Below are positions 37,614 to 48,136 of a stretch of 54,597 nucleotides of DNA, in pieces. Positions within the stretch are counted from its first letter, which is position 1. Each line of letters opens with the position of its first letter. Source of the stretch: an uncultured Bacilli bacterium. Its GTDB lineage: Bacteria > Bacillota_I > Bacilli_A > RF39 > UBA660. The notes beneath the pieces were generated by a model, which made no database searches, was not told the origin of the DNA, and saw nothing but the letters and a program-made list of their open reading frames with translations. The stretch spans positions 1 to 54,597 of the forward strand of contig CANRKD010000002.1 in the NCBI GenBank assembly GCA_947631105.1, in the 5' to 3' direction. Position numbers and translations under genes: made by a program.

Positions 37614-37642
37614 TTGACATTTTCTTTAAAATAAGTTAGAAT
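37614..37642 (+). promoter_or_regulatory. SigA-type promoter of the MPE-NTase gene
   Basis: TTGACA (37614-19), 17 nt, TAGAAT (37637-42). Confidence 0.6.
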
Positions 37643-37669: not shown

Positions 37670-39211
37670 ATGGAAATATCTTATTTTAAAGACATTTATG
37701 AAATGTTAAGTCGTAAACATCCGAATTCTAAAATTTATATTATTAGTGATCATCATTTTTTTCATAAGAATATTCTGGCTTATCAAAGACAAGAATTTAA
37801 CACTCTAGAAAGTATGCATGAATTCATAATTCATCAACATAATCAAGTGATTGAAGAAAAGGATATTGTATTATTTCTTGGGGATTTTTCCTTTAAGAAA
37901 TCAGAAATATTTTCTATTGTGAAACAAATGAAAGGCATTAAATATTTATTAATGGGTAATCACGATCAAGATATATCTCATAATTTTGGAAATTATGGTT
38001 TTGAAGGAATTTTTACTATTCCGGTAAAATTGCAAAATATTTATTTATCTCATCAACCCTTATTAGAAGAAGAAAATATGAATTTAAATTTGCAGTTATT
38101 AATTAAGGAATTTCAAAATAGTGATGGAATGAATTATCATGGTCATCTTCATAAAGATTTTATAAATAATCCTCGTTATCATAATGTGTGCTGTGAAGTT
38201 ATTAATTATCAACCTATATATATTGGCACGACAAAATTTATAAATAATGATAAAGAGTTATTTATCAATACGGAATTTTTTTCTCAATTATTAAAAGTAG
38301 TTCATAAAGAAAAAAATATAAATCCTCGTTTTCTTATTTCTGATTATATATATTCCAGTTTTCTAAATGCATTAGAACCTTATGAAGAGACGAGTTTTAT
38401 TTATGGCTCATATCCTCTTTATAAAAAATATGGATTGATTTCTAATTTTTCTGATTTAGATGTTGTGCAAATTTATAATCCGGAAATTAGTAAAGGAAAA
38501 AATGTACAAATTTTAAAACTTTTATTTCAAGAAGTTTTTGATTCTGTAAAAACGATTGATGATATAAATTTTTCTTTATATAAAAAATTTAATAATATGG
38601 CTATTTTTGAATTTTTATATGCTAATAAAGATGGCCATTGGTATAAAGGATATTTTGACAGTAATCTTGTTCCTTTAAATTGTTATAAAAAAAGTGATTT
38701 TGTAAAATTTACTGGTGGTAGCTATTTTGAATTTATATTAGAAAAAATGGGAATAAAACCGGATTGTCTTTTTCCTAAATATGATGCTCAGTTTTTAACG
38801 ATTAATGGAGATATTGCCAATTTAATTTTACAAATTCTTTTTCAATCCAATTTTAAAGAGAAAAAGAAAATGGCATTTTCTAAATTAAAAAATATATACA
38901 ATACATATGGAATAAAGGATATTGAAAATGTTTTGTCATTAGATGATATGATCACTCGTTTTTTTCTGCGTAATCTTTCTTTTTTTCATATGACCAAAAG
39001 AAAAAATGAGTTCGATTATATTAAAGAAGTAGATCCAGCTACTTTTCGAGCTATTTTTACTGGTTTGCCTGATTCTTTAAAAAATCAGTTGGAGGAAATA
39101 TTTTTAAATTCTAGTTCTGTTTTTTCAAAAACTTTTCAAGAAATAAAGCAAACAAAATTTGAAGAAATTACTAAAAAAAATGATGAATTGATTCGCTCTT
39201 TAAAAAAATAA
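37670..39211 (+). CDS. Fusion protein: N-terminal calcineurin-like metallophosphoesterase plus C-terminal Pol-beta-type nucleotidyltransferase-like region
   Basis: MPE motifs IISDHHFFHKNI, LGDFSF, GNHD, GHLH, NVCCEVINYQP (residues 1-190). The C-terminal part has YGSYPLYKKYGLISNFSDLDVV, fitting G[SG]-x(9-13)-[DE]h[DE]h (Gly246; Asp262 and Asp264 at 38453-38461). Confidence 0.7.
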   Translation: MEISYFKDIYEMLSRKHPNSKIYIISDHHFFHKNILAYQRQEFNTLESMHEFIIHQHNQVIEEKDIVLFLGDFSFKKSEIFSIVKQMKGIKYLLMGNHDQDISHNFGNYGFEGIFTIPVKLQNIYLSHQPLLEEENMNLNLQLLIKEFQNSDGMNYHGHLHKDFINNPRYHNVCCEVINYQPIYIGTTKFINNDKELFINTEFFSQLLKVVHKEKNINPRFLISDYIYSSFLNALEPYEETSFIYGSYPLYKKYGLISNFSDLDVVQIYNPEISKGKNVQILKLLFQEVFDSVKTIDDINFSLYKKFNNMAIFEFLYANKDGHWYKGYFDSNLVPLNCYKKSDFVKFTGGSYFEFILEKMGIKPDCLFPKYDAQFLTINGDIANLILQILFQSNFKEKKKMAFSKLKNIYNTYGIKDIENVLSLDDMITRFFLRNLSFFHMTKRKNEFDYIKEVDPATFRAIFTGLPDSLKNQLEEIFLNSSSVFSKTFQEIKQTKFEEITKKNDELIRSLKK

Positions 39212-39233
39212 ATGTAAAGTTGTTTCTTATTTT

Positions 39234-39263
39234 TAGACATTTTAATGTAAAGTATGATATGAT
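39234..39263 (+). promoter_or_regulatory. Possible extended -10 promoter of the SPFH/zinc-ribbon block
   Basis: TAGACA (39234-39), 18 nt, TGaTATGAT (39255-63). Confidence 0.4.
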
Positions 39264-39295
39264 GAAATAAATAAAAATAGGAAAGAAGTGAAGTT

Positions 39296-40513
39296 ATGGG
39301 ATTTATTAAAGCATTTAGTGGAGCAATTAGTGGAACGTTTGCAGATCAATGGTTAGAATTTTATGAACCACAACGTGGTGTATCAGCAACTGCAGCAATT
39401 ATTCCAGCAGTGGCTCACAATACAAATGCAGGGCGTGGATCCAACACAAGTGGATCAGAAAATATTATTTCCAACGGAAGTAAAATTATAGTACCTGAAA
39501 AAATGGCCTTAATTACTATGGAAAATGGGGAAATTACAGGTTTGATAGCGGAAGCAGGAGGATTTGAATTTAAATCAGATGATCCGAATTCTCAATCAGT
39601 TTTTAATCATGATGGAATTATTCAATCTATTGGTGGAGAAATAGTAGACAGAATAAAGTTTGGTGGACAACCTGGAACTCAACAATTAGCTTTTTATGTT
39701 AATTTAAAGGAGATACCTGGTAATAAATTTGGAACTCAATCTAAAATTTATTGGAATGATGCCTTTTTTGGAACCCAAGTTGGTGCTATTGTAAGAGGTA
39801 CTTATACATTACAAATTGTAGATCCATTATTATTTGTTAAAAATTATGTACCAGTAACATATTTACAACCTGGTTCTGAACCTTTTGATTTTGCCGATAT
39901 GAATAATACGGCTGCTGAACAATTATTTGATGAAGTAGTAGGTGCATTATCTGCAGCATTCTCCAATTATACGAATGATCCAAGTAGAGAAAATAGTATG
40001 ACAAAAATTCAAGGAGATCAAATTGGATTTGCTAAAAGCCTATCACAAGCTGTAGAAGAAGCATATCAATGGAAAAGTAATCGTGGACTTGAAATTATTA
40101 AAACAGCTATACTAGCTATAGAGTATGATGAAGATACGGAAAAATTAAGAACAGAGGTCAATGCCGCAGATGCTTTTGCAGGAGCAAGAGGGAATTCTTT
40201 TATGCAACAATCTATTGCACGTGGACTACAAGCTGCTGGTGAAAATGGTGGTGGAGCCAATATGGCATTTATGGGTATGGGTGTAAATGCTGCCGGAAGC
40301 GTTATGAACTCTGTGCAACAACAACCAACTCCATCAAGTTATCAACCTAATTTTGCTGCTGGACAACAAACAACTGGAGAAAATAATAATAGTACTAGTA
40401 ATAATAGCAGTGTTGATACAGAAAAATTGTTAGAAATGAAAAAACTTTTGGATGCCGGTGCTATTACTCAAGAAGATTATGATAAAGTAAAAAATCAAAT
40501 TTTGGGGATTTAG
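39296..40513 (+). CDS. SPFH/Band-7-like protein (COG4260-type) with Q/N-rich linker and C-terminal SHOCT domain
   Basis: MGFIKAFSGAISGTFADQWLEFYEP...IISNGSKIIVPE is typical of the YdjI-like 'virion core protein-like' SPFH group. C-terminal LEMKKLLDAGAITQEDYDKVKNQIL is a SHOCT domain. Confidence 0.75.
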   Translation: MGFIKAFSGAISGTFADQWLEFYEPQRGVSATAAIIPAVAHNTNAGRGSNTSGSENIISNGSKIIVPEKMALITMENGEITGLIAEAGGFEFKSDDPNSQSVFNHDGIIQSIGGEIVDRIKFGGQPGTQQLAFYVNLKEIPGNKFGTQSKIYWNDAFFGTQVGAIVRGTYTLQIVDPLLFVKNYVPVTYLQPGSEPFDFADMNNTAAEQLFDEVVGALSAAFSNYTNDPSRENSMTKIQGDQIGFAKSLSQAVEEAYQWKSNRGLEIIKTAILAIEYDEDTEKLRTEVNAADAFAGARGNSFMQQSIARGLQAAGENGGGANMAFMGMGVNAAGSVMNSVQQQPTPSSYQPNFAAGQQTTGENNNSTSNNSSVDTEKLLEMKKLLDAGAITQEDYDKVKNQILGI

Positions 40514-40515
40514 TT

Positions 40516-42027
40516 ATGGAAAATGGATATAATCAAAATATTCCATCACCAAATAATGAAACGAATGAAGAAGTAAAAGTTGTAAAAACAGATATAGGAG
40601 CAAAGGACGGTCAAAATAAATGTCCTAAATGTGGAGCAACAGATATATCTTTAAATATAAATAATGGTAATTTAAGATGTAATTTTTGTCGCCATGAATT
40701 TGTTCCAGAAAAATTAGAAGGCATGCAAGACGATTTAAGTCATTTGCAAGGTCAGGTGATCGCTTCAGGAGCAACAGATATTGCTGCAGATACAAGCGAT
40801 TTAGTAACACTTAAATGTAGTAGTTGTGGAGCAGAAGTAGTTATTGACACATCTTCTACTGCTCAAGCTCGTTGTCATTGGTGTCGAAATACATTATCCT
40901 TGAATCAACAAATACCAAATGGTAGTATTCCTGATGTTTTACTTCCATTTAAAATTACAAAAGAGGAAGCAAGAAAAGAAATTGAATCTTTTGTTAAAAA
41001 AAGAAAGTTTTATGCTCATCCAAAATTTACTAAAGAATTTACAACAGAAAATATTATGGGTGTTTATTTTTCCTATATGATTGTGGATGTAAATTCTCAT
41101 GTTTTGCTTTCGGGAAATGGAGAACATTTAGTTCGAGAATATACAGAAGGATCAGATGAAAATAGAGAAACTTATTATGATGCCGATTTGTATGCAGTAG
41201 AAAGAGAATTTGATTTAGTAATAGATGGACTTACTATTGAATCAAATAGTGATAAATTAAATAAAAATTCAAAAGATAAGACCAATAATATCATTAATTC
41301 AATTATGCCGTTTGATATCGAAAATTGTATAAAATTTAATGCTAATTACTTAAAAGGTTATACATCTGAAAAAAGAGATACCAATATTGAACAATTGAAG
41401 CCTCTGATAGAAAGACAATCAAAAGATATTGCTCGTTTTTCTATCAATAATACTTTAGATCGATATGATCGTGGAGTTGCCTGGAAACAAGAAGAAATGA
41501 ATTTTATAGGTCAACAATGGAAATCAGCTTATTTACCTGTTTGGCTTTATAGTTATTTACAAGTCAAGGGCAATAAAAAAGTTTTGCATTACGTTGCTGT
41601 AAATGCTAGGACAAAAGAAACTATGGGAAGTGTACCAATTCATATTCCTAAATTGTTTGGTGTCTCCTTTTTTATAGAATGTTTAGGAATTGTTGCAATG
41701 ATGAATATAGATTTTGATAATAATTGGCTGTTCTTACTTGTTGGTTTCATATATTTTTTCATGATTTATATAAAATATCGTAATAATGATGTTCGTCATA
41801 AATATGAATTAGAAACGAAGACGAATGTTCAAAATCTTCATCGAGTCGATCATTTTATTCAAACAGAGAGAAGATTAAAAAATTTTCGAATGAAAGGCGC
41901 TAATAATACCAACGTAAGTGATACAAATATTAGTAGTTCTATTATCAATTCTTTGGTAGATAATAATGAATTGGCTAGTTTTATAAAAAATAATAATGAT
42001 AAAAATCAGAAAGGAGGCAATTTATGA
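40516..42027 (+). CDS. Double zinc-ribbon protein with a C-terminal membrane hairpin
   Basis: CPKCG-x15-CNFC and CSSCG-x15-CHWC ribbons, about 250 aa of unknown domain, then two TM segments (LFGVSFFIECLGIVAMM, WLFLLVGFIYFFMIYI). Confidence 0.7.
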   Translation: MENGYNQNIPSPNNETNEEVKVVKTDIGAKDGQNKCPKCGATDISLNINNGNLRCNFCRHEFVPEKLEGMQDDLSHLQGQVIASGATDIAADTSDLVTLKCSSCGAEVVIDTSSTAQARCHWCRNTLSLNQQIPNGSIPDVLLPFKITKEEARKEIESFVKKRKFYAHPKFTKEFTTENIMGVYFSYMIVDVNSHVLLSGNGEHLVREYTEGSDENRETYYDADLYAVEREFDLVIDGLTIESNSDKLNKNSKDKTNNIINSIMPFDIENCIKFNANYLKGYTSEKRDTNIEQLKPLIERQSKDIARFSINNTLDRYDRGVAWKQEEMNFIGQQWKSAYLPVWLYSYLQVKGNKKVLHYVAVNARTKETMGSVPIHIPKLFGVSFFIECLGIVAMMNIDFDNNWLFLLVGFIYFFMIYIKYRNNDVRHKYELETKTNVQNLHRVDHFIQTERRLKNFRMKGANNTNVSDTNISSSIINSLVDNNELASFIKNNNDKNQKGGNL

Positions 42028-42902
42028 ATTGCTCAAATTGTGGGGCTCAAAATAGTCCTGATTCCAAATTTTGTATAGAATGCGGGAGCGCATTAAATAA
42101 TACTACTCAAAATAATATGATAAATAATCAACAACCTTCAATGGAAAATATTCCTCCAGTCATGTCTAATGAACAAACAATACCAACTCAACAAACATCC
42201 GTAAATATGGCTGCTAATACAGCTACAGAAGTAGCTAATAATGCACCATTAAACTATATTCAATATTTAATATCTATTCTTATTAAACCATTTCAAGGAT
42301 TTAATAATGAAAAAAGTAAATTAAATAATTCTAAGAATTCTCTTATTTTAACTTTAATTGTTACTATCGTGATGACATTATCTACTTTAATAAGAACTAT
42401 TATAAATACAGTACATGTCAAAAACTTTAGTTTTCTTTCAGATAGTACCTATTCATGGGAGTTTAGCAGATTAAAAGATATTAATTATCTTGAAGTTGTT
42501 GGTAAAAACTTTTTGATATATGCAGGAATTATTTTAGCCATTGCTATAGTCTTTTATTTAGGAAGTTTAATTATAAAGAAACAAATGGATTTCTTTAAAT
42601 CATTATCTATTTCGGCAAGTGCTGCCATTCCAGCCGTTATAGCATCTATGATTCTTTCTCCCATTTTAACTTTAATATGGGCGCAGTTAGGTATTTTTGT
42701 ATCGATATTTGGCTTTGTATATTCTGTATTGATTTTATATGAACTAATCAATAGTGAATTAAAATTAGAAAATGATTTAAAAATATACTTTAATGTAATT
42801 TGTTTTGGATTATTACTTAGTATTGCTTATTATGTAGGAATGAAATTAATTATGAGTTCTGTTACTTCAAGTATAGGAAACGTTTTAGATTACTTTGATT
42901 AA
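42024..42902 (+). CDS. N-terminal zinc ribbon, Q/N-rich linker and Yip1-like polytopic membrane domain
   Basis: MNCSNCGAQNSPDSKFCIECG, then about 5 TM segments. Overlaps the upstream gene by 4 nt. Confidence 0.7.
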   Translation: MNCSNCGAQNSPDSKFCIECGSALNNTTQNNMINNQQPSMENIPPVMSNEQTIPTQQTSVNMAANTATEVANNAPLNYIQYLISILIKPFQGFNNEKSKLNNSKNSLILTLIVTIVMTLSTLIRTIINTVHVKNFSFLSDSTYSWEFSRLKDINYLEVVGKNFLIYAGIILAIAIVFYLGSLIIKKQMDFFKSLSISASAAIPAVIASMILSPILTLIWAQLGIFVSIFGFVYSVLILYELINSELKLENDLKIYFNVICFGLLLSIAYYVGMKLIMSSVTSSIGNVLDYFD

Positions 42903-42904
42903 TT

Positions 42905-44491
42905 ATGAATAATGATTTTAATTTAAATGAAGAAAATTCTTCTAATTTGGATAACGTTCAAAATGGAATGAATTCTTCTGAAGCAAATAATAGCAATGTT
43001 CAAAATGAAATGAATTCTTTTGGAACAAATAATAGTAGTGTTCAAAATGATATAAATTCTTTCAATTCAAACGCTGAAACTGAAATAAAGAAAAAAAATT
43101 ATTTTTCTGATATAAAGGAAAAAATAATAAAAAATAAAAAAAGTTTAGTTCTAGTGATAATGATACTCTTCGTAATTATTGGTTCTATCTTTGTGATTAA
43201 AAAGTTTTTCTTTAAATCTTCAGATTTTGCTAACTTTTTTAATCCAAATCAATTAATAAGTGTTGAAAAAGATGGTAAGTATGGTTACATAAATTCAAAG
43301 GGAAAAATGGTTTTAGATCCAATCTATGAAGAGGCTAGTAATTTTGTAGGAAATTATGCTGAGGTTGAGGTAAAAGATCAAGAAGGAAATTCAATTTATC
43401 AGTTAATAGATAGTAAGGGAAAGGTAAAGGCTGAAACAGATTCAGTATATGATATAGAGTATATTTCTGATTATAATGTTTGGGTGATTAATAATCAGTT
43501 ATATAATAGTTCATTAAAAAGATTATCTAAAGATAATGTCCAAGTGAGTTATCAAGATGATGGTTATTTATCATGGACTAACCAAAAAAATAAAACTGCT
43601 GGATATATGAATACAGAAGGAAAAGTTATTTATACTTATAAATTCCAAAATGATGAATATTTTTTTGATGTTAGTCCTTCAGACAGTTATTATGATAATT
43701 TAGAACAATATTGTATTATTAATGTGGAGAATAAAAAATATGGTATTGTAAATTGTGAAACAGGTAAGATTGTATATGATTTAAGTAATCATGATATTTT
43801 AGATGAAAATAATAATGTTTTTAGTATTTATAAAGATTCTGATATGGAAGAATTAGATTCAAAAATATTTGTTTATAATGATAAAATTGCTTATCAAACT
43901 AAAAATGAAAATGCTGATTTAGATTATTATTCTTATGGCTATTTGGTCATAAGAGAGGAAGAACAAAATTCTTATTATCTTCCTAAACAGGATAAAATAG
44001 TAAAAGAAGTGCCACAAATTTCGGATATGACTGTAGACGAAATTCCAGATGAATGGGAACAACTTACAAACATAAAAAAAGAAAAGTGTGATTCGAATTA
44101 TAAATTAGTGAAAAATAATAAAGATATTCTATCTTGTGAATGGGATAGCATTAAATATTTAGGTGTAGATCTTTATCAATATTTAAAGACAAAAGGAAAA
44201 GATTATGTTTATGCTTCTAAAGATAATAAAATGTATATTGTGGATTTAAAAAATGGTAAGATTGTAACAGAATTTAGTACTGTTAATATAAAAGTTGATG
44301 ATTATAGTACATTTATTTATTATCAAGATGCGGAGAATAAAAAAACAATTGTTTATAATCTTTTAAGTGGTAAATCATTAACAATTGATGCTAATTATGT
44401 GGATGTTTATGCAAATTATATTACTGTTGATGAGGATGATCATACCAATTATTATAATACTGATTTAAAATTGATCTATTCAGAAGAGTAA
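42905..44491 (+). CDS. Single-pass membrane protein with N-rich tandem repeats and a WG-repeat ectodomain
   Basis: TM segment LVLVIMILFVIIGSIFVI and KDGKYGYINSKGKMVLDPIYEEA-type WG repeats. Confidence 0.7.
   Translation: MNNDFNLNEENSSNLDNVQNGMNSSEANNSNVQNEMNSFGTNNSSVQNDINSFNSNAETEIKKKNYFSDIKEKIIKNKKSLVLVIMILFVIIGSIFVIKKFFFKSSDFANFFNPNQLISVEKDGKYGYINSKGKMVLDPIYEEASNFVGNYAEVEVKDQEGNSIYQLIDSKGKVKAETDSVYDIEYISDYNVWVINNQLYNSSLKRLSKDNVQVSYQDDGYLSWTNQKNKTAGYMNTEGKVIYTYKFQNDEYFFDVSPSDSYYDNLEQYCIINVENKKYGIVNCETGKIVYDLSNHDILDENNNVFSIYKDSDMEELDSKIFVYNDKIAYQTKNENADLDYYSYGYLVIREEEQNSYYLPKQDKIVKEVPQISDMTVDEIPDEWEQLTNIKKEKCDSNYKLVKNNKDILSCEWDSIKYLGVDLYQYLKTKGKDYVYASKDNKMYIVDLKNGKIVTEFSTVNIKVDDYSTFIYYQDAENKKTIVYNLLSGKSLTIDANYVDVYANYITVDEDDHTNYYNTDLKLIYSEE
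42956..43072 (+). repeat. 42-nt in-frame tandem repeat, about 2.8 copies
   Basis: Units 42956-42997, 42998-43039 and 43040-about 43072 encode VQNGMNSSEANNSN / VQNEMNSFGTNNSS / VQNDINSFNSN. Confidence 0.8.
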
Positions 44492-44593
44492 TAATCACAC
44501 TCATTTAAGAATGATTCTAGTATGATTAGAAAAAATGAATTTTTAAATGAAAATAATTAGAAATGCCGAAGTAGTTGAAATTAATTAAAAATG

Positions 44594-44625
44594 AGGATAA
44601 CTATTTGCTTTAGTTATCCTTTTTT
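44594..44625 (+). terminator. Hairpin plus T-run immediately before the SD of the vWA gene
   Basis: AGGATAACT (44594-602), 9-nt loop, AGTTATCCT (44612-20), T5, then GGAAAGGAG and ATG 44642. Confidence 0.7.
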
Positions 44626-44641
44626 GGAAAGGAGTATATTT

Positions 44642-47479
44642 ATGTTTTGTCCGAATTGTGGAAATAAACTGAATGGAAATGAAGAGTTTTGTCCTTCTTG
44701 TGGAAAAAATATAAAAGAGTTATCTGTTTATAATCAAGAAGTACAAAAGCAAAAGGATATTCAATCAATTCAACAAATAAGTTCAAATAAGAATGTTACC
44801 ATGACCGAAAAATTTTCAAAAAATAGTTCAAATTTTATAAAATCAAAAATTAATAAAATGAAAACCTTCTTTACTAATCATAAAAAACATTGTGCAATTG
44901 CATGTTGTTGTGTTTTAGTAATAGGTATTGGAGTACTTTTATATAGTCGTTTTATTGGATTTGAAAAGTTAAGTTGGAATGATAATTATTCTAATTCTAA
45001 ATTAACTTATGTAACCCAGTCGAATATAAAATTAGGTGTAAATTTTTCTGATAATTCAAAAATTGATGAAATAAAGTATTCTTCTACTTGTGGAGAAGTT
45101 GAAGGTAATGGATTAGAAGTAAAATGGGATTTAACTGAAGCTAGTGGAAAATGTAAAATAACGGCTGCTTATAAGTTGAAGAAAATAAGTAAAGAGTATC
45201 AAATTATACCATTTGATATGACAGAAAAAGAACTTACTTTAGATAATAAAATAGATTTAGATTCTGATGAAGATTTGGATTTAGATCATTTAACAAATAA
45301 ACAAGAAAAAGAATATAAAACGAATCCATTATTATCTGATAGTGATATGGATGGTTTGGATGATGACTATGAAATTAATACAAGTAAAACTAATCCTAAC
45401 AAAAAGGATACAGATGGGGATGGCTTGAGTGATTATGATGAAATAGAATTAGATTTAGATCCTTTAAAGTCAGATTCTAAAGGTGATGGAACAGAAGATG
45501 GAGAAAGAAAACTAACTTATGATTATTCAACAGATGGTGTAAAACTTTCTATTTCTGGTAAAGGAAATATTGCAAGTACGATAGCAAAGATAAATTCAAA
45601 TACTAAAATTAGCAATAAAAAAGGTATGATTGATAATTTATATACATTTTATACTGATGGAAGTATTGATGAAGTAATAGTTACCATTTCATATACAGAT
45701 GAGGATTTATCAAAATATGGATTAAATGAAGACAATTTATCTATCTATTATTATAATGAAAATGAATCAAAATATGAAAAGATTGAAACAACTATTGATA
45801 AAGAAAATAATACTTTAACAGCAAAGTTAAAACATTTTTCTCATTATGTAGTAGGTGATAAGTCATTAGTAAAAGAAAAAGAAACCACTCAAATATTGTT
45901 TATTCTTGATAATTCTTGGAGCATGTATAGTAATGCTCAATATAAAGAAATAACTGGAAAAGAGTACACAGGAGGTTTTTTTGGAGACTCTAAGTTAGAT
46001 GGTTTTGATGAAGCAGGAGTAAGATTTACATTAACCAGTGACTTAGTATCAAGATTATCTCAAAAAAAGTATCAAATAGGATTATCCGAGTTTAGAAGAG
46101 ACTATGCTAATGCCTCTGCCATAGGAACGAATGCAGACTCAATTAAATCTACGTTAAGTGGAATGAATGGTAAGTTTATAACTGAATCGGAGGGTACTAA
46201 TATAGGAAACGCATTAATAAGTGGTATTGAAGAATTTTCTAAAGATAGTGATAATAAGTTTATTGTGTTATTAACTGATGGCCAAGATACTTCGTTAAAT
46301 AGTAAAATCCAAAAAATAATTGATGAAGCCAATTCTAGTGATGTAAAAATATGTTCAATCGGTTTTGGTGGAGGTTCATATAATACTGAATTATCAAATA
46401 TTTCAAATGGTACAGGATGTAAGTTCTTTTCTTCAAGTAATGTGAATGGTTTAACTGAATTGTTTGAAAATGTTGGAGCTGAATTAGATGATGATTTAGT
46501 AGATCTTGATAATGATGATAAGGCAGATGGTATACTATTAGCTGATAGTGGCTTTGTAGTAAACCGTGATGGATTCTCATTTGGAAACTATGGAACAAAT
46601 TTATCTACCGGAGGACATTGTTTTGGAATGGCTACTTTTGCAGAATTATACTATAAAAAAGTATTGCCATTAAAAGTTGGTTCTCTTACATCAGATGATA
46701 ATCAATCTTATGAATATAATTTATCTAATACCTATTTTAAAAATTATAGTAATTTGTATGATTATAAATTAAAAACTAATGCTTTGAAATATACTTTTGG
46801 CTATGATATATTTGGCGAAGAAGCACCGGCAGATTTTAGACGTTTGAAAGATGATGTATTAATTATTAATGACAAATATAAAGAAAAAATAAAAAAATCT
46901 GGAATTTACGATATAAAAGAAGAAAAGTCTGGATTGTCTAAGGAAGAACAAATAAAAAAATGGGGAGTAAATTATAAAACATCAGAGAATTTATTGTTAA
47001 ATGAAGATAAGATGCAAAAAAGTAGTTCTTTTAATAATGATGATAAGCAAATGTTTAATGCTATATATGCAAATTTTATAAAACAAAATTCAACAACTTT
47101 CTATTCATCATCAACTAATTTTACTTTATGGTTGAGAAATGTTGTCGGTACAGAAACGACAGGATATACTGGAGCATCAGGTTTTATAAATATAATAAAG
47201 GCAAGATTAAATGATCATGATCCTTTAGTCATTTCATCAAGTTATAGTGGCGGATTACATGCTATTAATGCAATTAGTTTAATACAGGATATAAAAAATC
47301 CAAATTATTATTATATAGGTGTATACGATAATAATTATCCTGGTAAAAAAAGATATGTCGATGTTAAATGTACAAAAGATGAATGTGTTATAAAAGCAAA
47401 TTCATACTATACAGAATCCGATCAACCTATCAGAATAACACCATCATTAGAATATGATTTGGAATATTTTAATAAATAA
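44642..47479 (+). CDS. Zinc ribbon - TM - TSP3 calcium-binding repeats - vWA - C-terminal Cys/His (papain-like?) domain protein
   Basis: MFCPNCGNKLNGNEEFCPSCG. TM segment AIACCCVLVIGIGVLLY. DSDMDGLDDDYE and DTDGDGLSDYDE repeats. MIDAS DNSWS...GTN...LLTDGQD. GGHCFGMA (Cys codon 46619-21) and GGLHAINA (His codon 47258-60) followed by VYDNN. ATG 44642 preferred over 44591. Confidence 0.8.
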   Translation: MFCPNCGNKLNGNEEFCPSCGKNIKELSVYNQEVQKQKDIQSIQQISSNKNVTMTEKFSKNSSNFIKSKINKMKTFFTNHKKHCAIACCCVLVIGIGVLLYSRFIGFEKLSWNDNYSNSKLTYVTQSNIKLGVNFSDNSKIDEIKYSSTCGEVEGNGLEVKWDLTEASGKCKITAAYKLKKISKEYQIIPFDMTEKELTLDNKIDLDSDEDLDLDHLTNKQEKEYKTNPLLSDSDMDGLDDDYEINTSKTNPNKKDTDGDGLSDYDEIELDLDPLKSDSKGDGTEDGERKLTYDYSTDGVKLSISGKGNIASTIAKINSNTKISNKKGMIDNLYTFYTDGSIDEVIVTISYTDEDLSKYGLNEDNLSIYYYNENESKYEKIETTIDKENNTLTAKLKHFSHYVVGDKSLVKEKETTQILFILDNSWSMYSNAQYKEITGKEYTGGFFGDSKLDGFDEAGVRFTLTSDLVSRLSQKKYQIGLSEFRRDYANASAIGTNADSIKSTLSGMNGKFITESEGTNIGNALISGIEEFSKDSDNKFIVLLTDGQDTSLNSKIQKIIDEANSSDVKICSIGFGGGSYNTELSNISNGTGCKFFSSSNVNGLTELFENVGAELDDDLVDLDNDDKADGILLADSGFVVNRDGFSFGNYGTNLSTGGHCFGMATFAELYYKKVLPLKVGSLTSDDNQSYEYNLSNTYFKNYSNLYDYKLKTNALKYTFGYDIFGEEAPADFRRLKDDVLIINDKYKEKIKKSGIYDIKEEKSGLSKEEQIKKWGVNYKTSENLLLNEDKMQKSSSFNNDDKQMFNAIYANFIKQNSTTFYSSSTNFTLWLRNVVGTETTGYTGASGFINIIKARLNDHDPLVISSSYSGGLHAINAISLIQDIKNPNYYYIGVYDNNYPGKKRYVDVKCTKDECVIKANSYYTESDQPIRITPSLEYDLEYFNK

Positions 47480-47493
47480 GAGGAGAGTGAAAA

Positions 47494-48075
47494 ATGAAAG
47501 AAAATATTTTTATAAAATTTGTAGCTAGTATACCGATTATATTGGTAGCGTTTTATTTCATTCCTTTTTTGGGAGTGTGTTTCTTAATATTAAGATATTT
47601 TGTATATCCTTTCAAAAGAAAATCAACACCTTTTGTTTTAATATTGGTAGGATTAGGAACTTTTATTCCTTTCTTAATCAATTTTATAGCACAACACTAT
47701 AATTTTTCTAATGATGTAATTTTAGCGTTGCAAACTTTTGTAAATTCAAATTTATATCAAGAAAAGTTTATGCATAATAGTAAATTTCTAATTATAATAG
47801 GCTCTTTATTTTTAATTTTTTCTTATTTATTTTCTGTTTTAGAAACAAAACTACAAGTGAATTTTATGAAATATGTGCATAGTGAATTCAAAAAAGATGA
47901 AGAAATATCTAAACAAAATGATATGGAGTTAAAAATAAAACGAGAGAAGGCATTATCTACTGCTTATGTAAAATGTCCTTATTGTGGAGCAGATAATCTT
48001 ATTTCTCAAAAAGTTGGTGTCTGTAGTTATTGTCGAAGAAAATTAGAAAATAAAGCTTTTAAAGAATCACATTGA
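47494..48075 (+). CDS. Four-TM protein with a C-terminal zinc ribbon
   Basis: Hydrophobic N-terminal 120 aa, a charged helix, then CPYCGADNLISQKVGVCSYC. Confidence 0.6.
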   Translation: MKENIFIKFVASIPIILVAFYFIPFLGVCFLILRYFVYPFKRKSTPFVLILVGLGTFIPFLINFIAQHYNFSNDVILALQTFVNSNLYQEKFMHNSKFLIIIGSLFLIFSYLFSVLETKLQVNFMKYVHSEFKKDEEISKQNDMELKIKREKALSTAYVKCPYCGADNLISQKVGVCSYCRRKLENKAFKESH

Positions 48076-48085
48076 TTCTTTTTTC
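48063..48085 (+). terminator. Rho-independent terminator closing the block
   Basis: AGAATCA, loop CAT, TGATTCT, then a T-run. Spans the TGA stop. Confidence 0.7.
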
Positions 48086-48136
48086 TTTTTATTTATCAGT
48101 TTATGATATAATACTTGGGAAAGAAGTTGGTGTAAA

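Follow-up and report, generated by a model that had tools for sequence, protein, structure and literature searches.

Six consecutive genes encoding zinc-ribbon, membrane and surface proteins are found in a 54,597-nucleotide (nt) stretch of DNA from an uncultured Bacilli bacterium (GTDB lineage Bacteria; Bacillota_I; Bacilli_A; RF39; UBA660; contig CANRKD010000002.1 of assembly GCA_947631105.1). The whole stretch is termed the window here, and all coordinates follow its numbering. The genes, named G1 to G6 in order, occupy positions 39296–48075 of the forward strand and are spaced by +2, −4, +2, +150 and +14 nt, with +61 nt following G6. An earlier reading made from the sequence alone (the sequence-only reading) had described the first four genes as tightly coupled, and their gaps of +2, −4 and +2 nt bear this out.

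G1 (39296–40513) encodes a soluble SPFH (Band_7_1) protein with a SHOCT module and is a homologue of Bacillus YdjI. G2 (40516–42027), a YdjG homologue, encodes a double zinc ribbon with a transmembrane anchor. The product of G3 (42024–42902), which overlaps G2 by 4 nt, has an N-terminal zinc ribbon, a Q/N-rich linker and a Yip1 domain of five transmembrane segments. G4 (42905–44491) specifies an N/S-rich cytoplasmic tail, one transmembrane segment and a WG-repeat ectodomain. G5 (44642–47479) encodes an N-terminal ribbon, one transmembrane segment, a beta-sandwich, TSP3 repeats, a vWA domain and a C-terminal Cys/His/Asp domain. G6 (47494–48075) encodes three transmembrane segments, a basic coiled segment and a C-terminal zinc ribbon. 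G3–G6, together with the genes that take their place in related genomes, are referred to as the cassette.

Open reading frame (ORF), Pfam and alignment checks agree with the sequence-only reading on the six genes, their five CxxC ribbons, the transmembrane segments, the partner domains, the DNSWS motif and the Cys/His domain. The canonical CxxC-x(n)-CxxC ribbons are at residues 36–58 and 101–123 of G2 (nt 40621–40689 and 40816–40884), 3–20 of G3 (42030–42083), 3–20 of G5 (44648–44701) and 161–180 of G6 (47974–48033), and their Cys residues are invariant or nearly so among orthologues. All ribbon-bearing products also have predicted transmembrane segments. The count of five ribbons in four products thus stands. 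The WG-repeat protein G4 is ribbon-less in this genome, and some of its orthologues have an N-terminal ribbon. By the positive-inside rule, a cytoplasmic location is predicted for the ribbons and tails: basic residues precede the transmembrane segment in G4 and G5, and in G6 the basic segment and the ribbon come after the third transmembrane segment. This prediction, together with those of the transmembrane segments, is in keeping with the earlier proposal of membrane-associated products with cytoplasmic ribbons. Matches to enzyme-pathway, transporter or regulator families were not found in G1–G6 with Pfam or NCBIfam, also as proposed.

Kinship of G1 and G2 to Bacillus proteins

G1 has no transmembrane segment and no Cys, and contains a Gly/Met-rich linker; its SHOCT module is at residues 377–403 (40424–40504). 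The window copy falls below the Pfam cut-off for both SHOCT and Band_7_1 (PF13421: 21.4 bits vs a 24-bit cut-off), and 27 of 27 G1 orthologues match both families (Band_7_1 at E ≤ 1e-3, best 9e-9). For comparison, the ydj locus of the Bacillus subtilis group was fetched with a published ydjG primer sequence. BLASTP aligns G1 with Bacillus YdjI across the SPFH domain and the Gly/Met-rich linker (9e-7), and a profile of the 27 orthologues matches YdjI with an hhalign probability of 96% (E 2e-9). The match between G2 and YdjG is colinear, residues 35–380 against 6–315 (BLASTP 1e-25). G2 contains, beyond its two ribbons, a central domain, a hydrophobic hairpin at about residues 380–418 and a C-terminal tail of about 85 amino acids (aa).

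Related loci come from 80 species-level metagenome-assembled genomes (MAGs) of uncultured low-GC (guanine–cytosine content) gut Bacilli/‘Tenericutes’, in which G2 is 60–70% identical to the window copy; counts of G2-anchored loci are given out of 81. With phmmer, a YdjG query matches all 81 G2 copies and a YdjI query matches 64 G1 copies. G1 immediately precedes G2 in 80 of the 81 loci, and the remaining locus ends at a contig edge.

A protein of 682 aa in a representative library, P0294, has a complete Band_7_1 domain (residues 42–263) fused to a G2/YdjG-like region (267–669), and contains neither the G1 linker nor SHOCT. The existence of this fusion supports a physical link between the Band_7_1 and G2-like families. 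G2-like proteins of about 600 aa with PF13421 matches are possible gene-call fusions and were given no weight; P0294 is the cleaner case because it has the full Band_7_1 domain and no G1 tail. The G2/YdjG family comprises 3,396 representative clusters. More distant G2 homologues (47–52% identity) were sampled by looking up the contigs that encode them, and in a lineage of 58% GC the G1–G2 pair is present with no cassette. In other low-GC Firmicutes, some of the G2-like genes that have no G1 beside them are flanked by the pyruvate kinase gene and by pheS, and adjoin yabP and yqfD, which are sporulation genes.

In B. subtilis, pspA-ydjGHI forms a sigma-W operon (PMC8581546). YdjI is soluble and its membrane foci require YdjG and YdjH, PspA foci in turn require YdjI, and these proteins form a network in two-hybrid assays (PMC8581546). 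YdjG consists of two zinc ribbons, an NTF2-like domain and a transmembrane segment, and YdjI of a band-7 domain with a C-terminal ribbon (PMC11237479). G1 and YdjI both have the Band_7_1 domain, a linker rich in Gly and Met and a small module at the C-terminus, and neither has a transmembrane segment; G2 and YdjG both carry a pair of ribbons at the N-terminus, a central domain and, at the C-terminus, a membrane anchor. In both organisms the SPFH and double-ribbon genes are adjacent and on the same strand.

There are also clear differences. The gene order is I-G here, whereas it is G-H-I in Bacillus. G1 ends in SHOCT, unlike YdjI, which ends in a Zn_ribbon_3/Zn_Ribbon_1 module at residues 301–322; G2 has a second hydrophobic segment and the tail of about 85 aa; and a ribbon-tagged cassette follows. 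No pspA and no TPM-domain ydjH are present in the window or the related loci, no TPM_phosphatase match was found in G1–G6 with Pfam, and a sigma-W-type motif (TGAAAC-N15–18-CGTA) does not occur anywhere in the window. With no PspA, no YdjH, no ribbon on its SPFH protein and no sigma-W motif, the block is not a full PspA-YdjGHI system. It is best classed as a YdjI/YdjG dyad that lacks PspA and is followed by a cassette specific to the lineage. G6 was considered as a functional replacement for YdjH; there is no homology, and the idea was set aside as speculation.

It should be pointed out that the sequence-only reading knew of no described system with this composition. For the core this has to be given up, as G1–G2 is homologous to YdjI/YdjG and Band_7_1 with SHOCT was already the commonest SHOCT architecture (PMC3581485). 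G1 has exactly that architecture. The SHOCT study describes the domain combination only, without naming partner genes or a function, and a test for oligomerisation in it came out negative (PMC3581485).

Genes that follow G2 in related genomes

Membrane proteins with a terminal ribbon are concentrated behind G2. ORFs that combine a terminal ribbon with transmembrane segments make up 34 of 77 at the first position after G2 and 75 of 381 at positions +1 to +6, vs 3 of 677 elsewhere in the same loci; among upstream ORFs there is one in 467. The enrichment has a Fisher p of 8e-32, a value that treats non-independent loci as independent. Within G2-anchored loci, six families, G3, G4, G5, G6 and two others termed c5 and c19, occur solely downstream of G2. 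The G6 family (three transmembrane segments and a C-terminal ribbon) is found in 22 of the 81 loci, G3 (ribbon and Yip1) in 19, c5 (four transmembrane segments, with or without a C-terminal ribbon) in 14, G4 (WG repeats) and G5 (ribbon and vWA) in 8 each, and c19 (a ribbon-anchored thermolysin M4 protease) in 5. G3 and G4 are confined to positions +1 to +3. G6 is the commonest partner and immediately follows G2 in 14 loci.

The association is also seen when other genes serve as anchor. With G6 as anchor, 61 loci could be assessed, and in 48 of them G2 is among the seven genes upstream. With G5 as anchor, 22 low-GC loci could be assessed: G2 is present in 12, any of G3, G4 or G6 in 17, and none of these in 5. 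The sequence-only reading had proposed testing whether such genes co-localise in related genomes, and the ribbon-bearing membrane genes do so with each of the three anchors.

Presence of the cassette changes at least 19 times on a neighbour-joining tree of G2. Gene orders vary as well and include convergent (L007), G6-G1-G2 (L128) and cassette-G1-G2 (L211) arrangements; the linkage survives rearrangement, since many distinct gene orders keep it. A contig of 40% GC that was binned as Saccharibacteria has the order G1-G2-three-transmembrane protein-thioredoxin/DsbA-like protein-G5 (L199:1848-9236). In this locus G5 and the three-transmembrane protein have no ribbon and G1 has no SHOCT. The joint absence of SHOCT and of the cassette ribbons is a single case that might be a lead on SHOCT–ribbon pairing. 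The cassette linkage is real, one-sided and family-specific, and is strong yet facultative.

Individual cassette members have recognisable domains. G3 matches Yip1 (2.9e-9) and Zn_Ribbon_1 (8e-8) in Pfam, and G4 matches WG_beta_rep (4e-12). In G6 the pattern CPxCGxDN...CxxCR is invariant in a 22-sequence alignment. PADLOC gives a weak match of G6 residues 81–186 to a candidate ‘HEase’ model (7e-7); this probably stems from the transmembrane, coiled-coil and ribbon region and was not read as a sign of a nuclease. Cassettes of relatives also include a thioredoxin-like protein and a Tim44-like protein with a ribbon.

The c19 protein, about 815 aa in length, has an N-terminal zinc ribbon, one transmembrane segment, FTP/PepSY propeptide motifs and a thermolysin M4 catalytic domain (e.g. 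L010:13102-15540; also in L013, L014, L037 and L062). By its domain content, c19 is a predicted ribbon-anchored extracellular metalloprotease.

G5 is the largest cassette product of the window. Pfam recognises Zn_Ribbon_1, VWA (3.7e-14) and TSP3_bac (6e-7). The DNSWS metal ion-dependent adhesion site (MIDAS) at residues 423–427 (45908–45922) is invariant in 32 homologues. In the C-terminal domain, C660 (46619–46621), H873 (47258–47260) and D896 (47327–47329) are invariant in the same 32-sequence alignment, as is the GHC660xG motif in which C660 lies. The family is narrow, with 829 homologues, and is conserved along its full length. An AlphaFold2 model (predicted local distance difference test score 76) shows the ribbon, a long helix/transmembrane region, beta-sandwich domains, TSP3, vWA and a C-terminal alpha/beta domain. 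Whole-model Foldseek matches are vWA proteins, i.e. the minor pilin PilB (7ba2), BatB (3ibs) and the A1 domain of von Willebrand factor, with top E values for the vWA domain of 3e-9 to 1e-8; the Bacteroides aerotolerance protein 4jdu was also matched. G5 resembles vWA adhesins and Bat proteins in having a vWA domain with an intact MIDAS. It differs from them in the added ribbon, TSP3 repeats and Cys/His/Asp domain; Pfam finds no pilin, MoxR/AAA ATPase, TPR or other Bat gene in the block, and the score of the G5 vWA domain against the NCBIfam BatA model is 29.8 bits, with a cut-off of 380 bits.

The C-terminal domain of G5 was modelled separately because the full-length fold search is dominated by vWA. 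The predicted TM-score of the isolated domain is 0.73; C660 opens a helix (659–671), and H873 and D896 are on strands of the C-terminal sheet. The best folds in the Protein Data Bank (PDB) are IdeS/Mac-1, SpeB and interpain, all weak matches (Foldseek E 0.1–0.6, TM-score 0.2, about 100 columns). IdeS/Mac-1 (C66) and SpeB (C10) are streptococcal papain-like cysteine proteases, and the likeness of G5 to them is weak and structural, with no sequence-level match; the order Cys...His...Asp is the same in all 32 G5 homologues. Papain-like (clan CA) peptidases carry the catalytic Cys on an N-terminal helix, and His and Asp/Asn on the beta-barrel lobe. The best reading of these models is that G5 is a surface adhesin with a predicted cysteine peptidase-like domain.

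Homologues of G5 are also found in MAGs of Candidatus Saccharibacteria from rumen and gut. They are 41–45% identical over residues of about 86–943 and do not have the N-terminal ribbon. The loci (L193–L198, L203, L205, L210, L212 and L213) have a GC fraction of 0.41–0.47 and are on contigs of up to 463 kb, and in several of them serpin and Mur-ligase genes are directly upstream. These sequences suggest horizontal transfer of G5 between gut Bacilli and epibionts of the candidate phyla radiation.

Transcription signals and flanking genes

A terminator-like hairpin is present on the forward strand between G4 and G5 (44593–44627), in the 150-nt spacer. It consists of an 11-bp stem (44593–44621) and a run of six U residues, with a folding energy of −14 kcal/mol (z −3.2). 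The ribosome-binding site of G5, GGAAAGGAG (44628–44636), comes immediately after the hairpin. The G5 start at 44642 fits the N-terminus of orthologues, MFCPNCG, and the other ATG, at 44591, falls within the hairpin. The hairpin is kept in 10 genomes regardless of which gene is upstream (the window, L166, L167, L168, L169, L181, L183, L185, L201 and L202), with compensatory changes at 5 of the 11 pairs.

The sequence-only reading placed a strong terminator at the end of the block. The structure found on the forward strand there (48061–48092) is an AU-rich hairpin with a 9-bp stem (48061–48081) and a U-run, and it overlaps the G6 stop codon. At −6.9 kcal/mol (z −3.4) it is weaker than the hairpin ahead of G5, which had been overlooked, and a consensus terminator scan did not pick it up; it is plausibly a weak intrinsic terminator. 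Because a conserved terminator-like hairpin precedes G5, and is stronger than the one at the block end, a single six-gene operon is doubtful, and one that is constitutive is unlikely. The recurrence of the hairpin before G5 implies that G5–G6 is either a separate unit or expressed via read-through or attenuation. The hairpin could be an attenuator that controls G5–G6. Thus there are probably two transcription units, or attenuation between them, with G1–G4 coupled and G5–G6 behind the hairpin.

Upstream of G1, a sigma-70-like promoter candidate on the forward strand (39234–39263; TAGACA-18-TATGAT, with an extended TG) matches the consensus at 10 of 12 positions and was identified by consensus matching alone. 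Related genomes have a different signal in this region. In 29 of 76 G1 leaders (e.g. L008, L016, L019, L025, L031, L058 and L063), a CTATTC-like box lies no more than 60 nt from the start codon; shuffled sequences give 4.3 ± 2.1. In 22 of the 29, a complementary GAATAG-like box is upstream at a variable distance, and an A-run and the ribosome-binding site follow. The paired boxes are a candidate for a conserved 5′-leader hairpin of the G1–G2 operon that has no Rfam family. They are missing from the window copy (39212–39295), perhaps owing to an insertion described below. An Rfam scan of the whole window found one tRNA and nothing else.

The block was said to lie between serS and miaB. Both flanking genes are above their NCBIfam cut-offs, but a forward-strand gene for a protein of 513 aa with an N-terminal metallophosphoesterase domain (37670–39211) separates serS from G1. 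Its N-terminal domain matches the phage family phrog_547 (8e-39, PHROGs), PADLOC finds a weak AbiEii-like match in the C-terminal half (4.6e-5), and the gene has a strong promoter-like site of its own at 37614–37642. Since the phosphoesterase gene is present in this genome only, among the 81 loci, it was probably inserted recently from a mobile element or phage. For the block itself a prophage or phage origin was rejected, PHROGs matches there being confined to the small ribbon and SHOCT modules.

Proposed scaffold, cassette and alternative explanations

The account we favour, by a modest degree of confidence, is that the block consists of two modules: a YdjI/YdjG-type scaffold (G1–G2) and an interchangeable cassette of accessory partners or clients. 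By homology with the Bacillus proteins, G2 would be a membrane-anchored, cytoplasm-facing double-ribbon adaptor that tethers G1 oligomers to the inner face of the membrane. The cassette, G3–G6 in this genome, would contribute membrane proteins with short cytoplasmic tails, usually ribbon-bearing, and with extracytoplasmic or polytopic domains; its membership appears to be lineage-specific and interchangeable. G5 would act as a surface protein with a metal-dependent vWA adhesion domain and a probable papain-like cysteine peptidase domain; in relatives, G5 is replaced or supplemented by the ribbon-anchored thermolysin-type protease, the thioredoxin-like protein and small ribbon-bearing transmembrane proteins. 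Judged from gene linkage, the cassette proteins might be placed or stabilised in a membrane patch organised by G1–G2, and the role would be in organisation of the envelope and its surface proteins rather than in immunity.

The ribbons are possibly the points of contact with the scaffold. YdjI has a C-terminal ribbon of the same type, which fits this idea. A more specific and rather doubtful version is that the cytoplasmic tails, mostly with PF13240-type ribbons, are address tags. A YdjI/YdjG SPFH microdomain would thereby take up small polytopic proteins and a varying range of membrane-anchored exoproteins, namely a vWA adhesin/cysteine protease, an M4 protease, a thioredoxin-like protein and a WG-repeat protein.

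Known SPFH proteins form scaffold–client pairs such as HflK/C-FtsH, stomatin-NfeD and FloT-YuaF, in which the SPFH protein encloses or regulates membrane proteins, often proteases, whose genes adjoin its own. A cage model has been presented for SPFH proteins (PMC10936438). The present loci are similar in that protease-type proteins are linked to the SPFH gene (the Cys/His/Asp domain of G5 and the M4 protease of relatives). They differ in that Pfam detects neither NfeD nor FtsH among the six products and in that G1 has no transmembrane segment of its own. In addition, only short cytoplasmic tails could contact the scaffold, because the catalytic domains of the candidate clients lie outside the cell. 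The resemblance is one of analogy and not of homology between the partners.

A second analogy is with S. aureus TcaA and similar Firmicutes proteins, which have an N-terminal PF13240-type ribbon, a single transmembrane segment and a variable extracellular domain. G5, c19 and some G4 orthologues resemble this layout. A TcaA-specific domain was not found in Pfam scans of the block products.

A number of observations weigh against a scaffold with clients. About half of the species have G1–G2 followed by unrelated genes and no cassette. The cassette, as G3-(G4)-G5-G6, is detached from G1–G2 in L096, L107 and L125, and in at least one MAG, G1–G2 and serS-G3-G5-G6 are on separate contigs (L040, L125). 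G6 is solitary in about 10 loci and G5 in 5 of 22, and the Saccharibacteria have G5 without any partner gene. Even the G1–G2 dyad is not universal: several low-GC lineages (L159/L160, L163, L164 and L165) have a G2-like gene with no adjoining G1, so a YdjG-type protein can exist without a neighbouring SPFH gene. Searches with phmmer (Bacillus PspA being the PspA query) that covered the window and the 3,213 ORFs from related loci found neither PspA nor YdjH; since both are central in Bacillus, the mechanism worked out there may not transfer. The linkage of ribbon-less proteins in L199 weakens the idea that ribbons dock on an SPFH scaffold. The C-terminal domain of G5 has no Pfam match at E ≤ 5 and no sequence match in the PDB, and its low fold scores leave the predicted peptidase assignment weak. 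All loci belong to one order-level lineage with an ancestral serS...G1-G2...miaB arrangement, and because of this, shared ancestry combined with a variable hotspot could yield much of the enrichment. The evidence for a functional tie between G1–G2 and the cassette is their gene neighbourhood.

Shared ancestry with a hotspot is the basis of the alternative that survives best, though we think it less likely than the two-module account: G1–G2 is a self-contained SPFH scaffold, and G3–G6 are unrelated surface and membrane proteins whose genes were brought together by ancestry and a recombination or insertion hotspot ahead of miaB. The recurrence of serS upstream and miaB downstream points to an ancestral variable slot, into which, in this genome, a foreign phosphoesterase gene was inserted beside the block. 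The many cassette-free species and the highly variable composition are what such a slot would give, as are the occurrences of the cassette, G6 and G5 elsewhere without G1–G2 and the conserved terminator-like hairpin ahead of G5. A hotspot should gather varied cargo, however, and not nearly only ribbon-bearing membrane proteins, and the enrichment is family-specific and confined to one side of G2 (34 of 77 ORFs at +1 and 1 of 467 upstream). The linkage also outlasts inversions and reorderings (L007, L128, L211 and L142) and holds in L199 with its 40% GC, and in the window G3 and G2 overlap by 4 nt.

Alternatively, G1–G2 might be a Psp-type stress adaptor that recruits PspA/IM30 encoded elsewhere, with the cassette as a set of co-regulated stress effectors. 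In favour of this are the homology to YdjI and YdjG and the fact that in B. subtilis PspA does not form membrane foci without YdjI (PMC8581546). We regard it as improbable, given that no PspA or TPM/YdjH was detected in the 54.6-kb window or the 3,213 related-locus ORFs and that there is no sigma-W-type promoter in the window.

The sequence-only reading took the six products to form one assembly. In its strict form, an obligate six-protein membrane machine encoded by one operon with every ribbon docked on the SPFH scaffold, this is very unlikely and is largely contradicted by the comparative data: the full set is found in few genomes, G5 comes after G2 in only 8 of 80 related species, and the cassette can be absent or detached. 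G5 stands without the other members in Saccharibacteria; L199 keeps the linkage although its three-transmembrane protein and G5 are ribbon-less and its G1 is SHOCT-less; and in the window a conserved terminator-like hairpin interrupts the block and G4 is ribbon-less. What the idea does have in its favour is the tight coupling of G1–G4, the prediction that the ribbons are cytoplasmic and thus on the same side as G1, and the PF13240/PF13248-type ribbon at the YdjI C-terminus. As B. subtilis YdjI carries one, this type of ribbon belongs to the repertoire of the system.

An anti-phage defence or phage-sensing system, which had also been suggested, is the most improbable of these explanations: the weak ‘HEase’ match of G6 and the weak AbiEii-like match of the neighbouring phosphoesterase are all that speak for it, whereas PADLOC gives no convincing match in the six proteins and none at all for G1–G5, Pfam finds no nuclease, NTPase or effector-type domain, PHROGs matches are only to the small ribbon and SHOCT modules, and the flanking genes are housekeeping genes. 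Overall, the sequence-only interpretation is partly supported.

The core of the block is already known as a module. YdjI-type (Band_7_1) SPFH proteins are widespread, and their sole studied role is the recruitment of PspA in B. subtilis. In the lineage analysed here, the G1–G2 pair is invariant without a linked PspA, and is repeatedly linked to modular, ribbon-tagged membrane and surface proteins. Provided that this linkage is functional, it supplies concrete, testable candidates for what the Band_7_1 scaffold class organises, and a role for the common and unexplained ‘zinc ribbon, transmembrane segment and ectodomain’ architecture of Firmicutes. Should the tails indeed be address tags, gut Bacilli with reduced genomes would organise or gate their surface proteins in a manner that had not been recognised before, and these proteins would be the first candidate client set for Band_7_1 SPFH scaffolds. 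G5 is conserved and abundant in uncultured gut Bacilli and is shared with Saccharibacteria, and it may matter for attachment to the host or to partner organisms.

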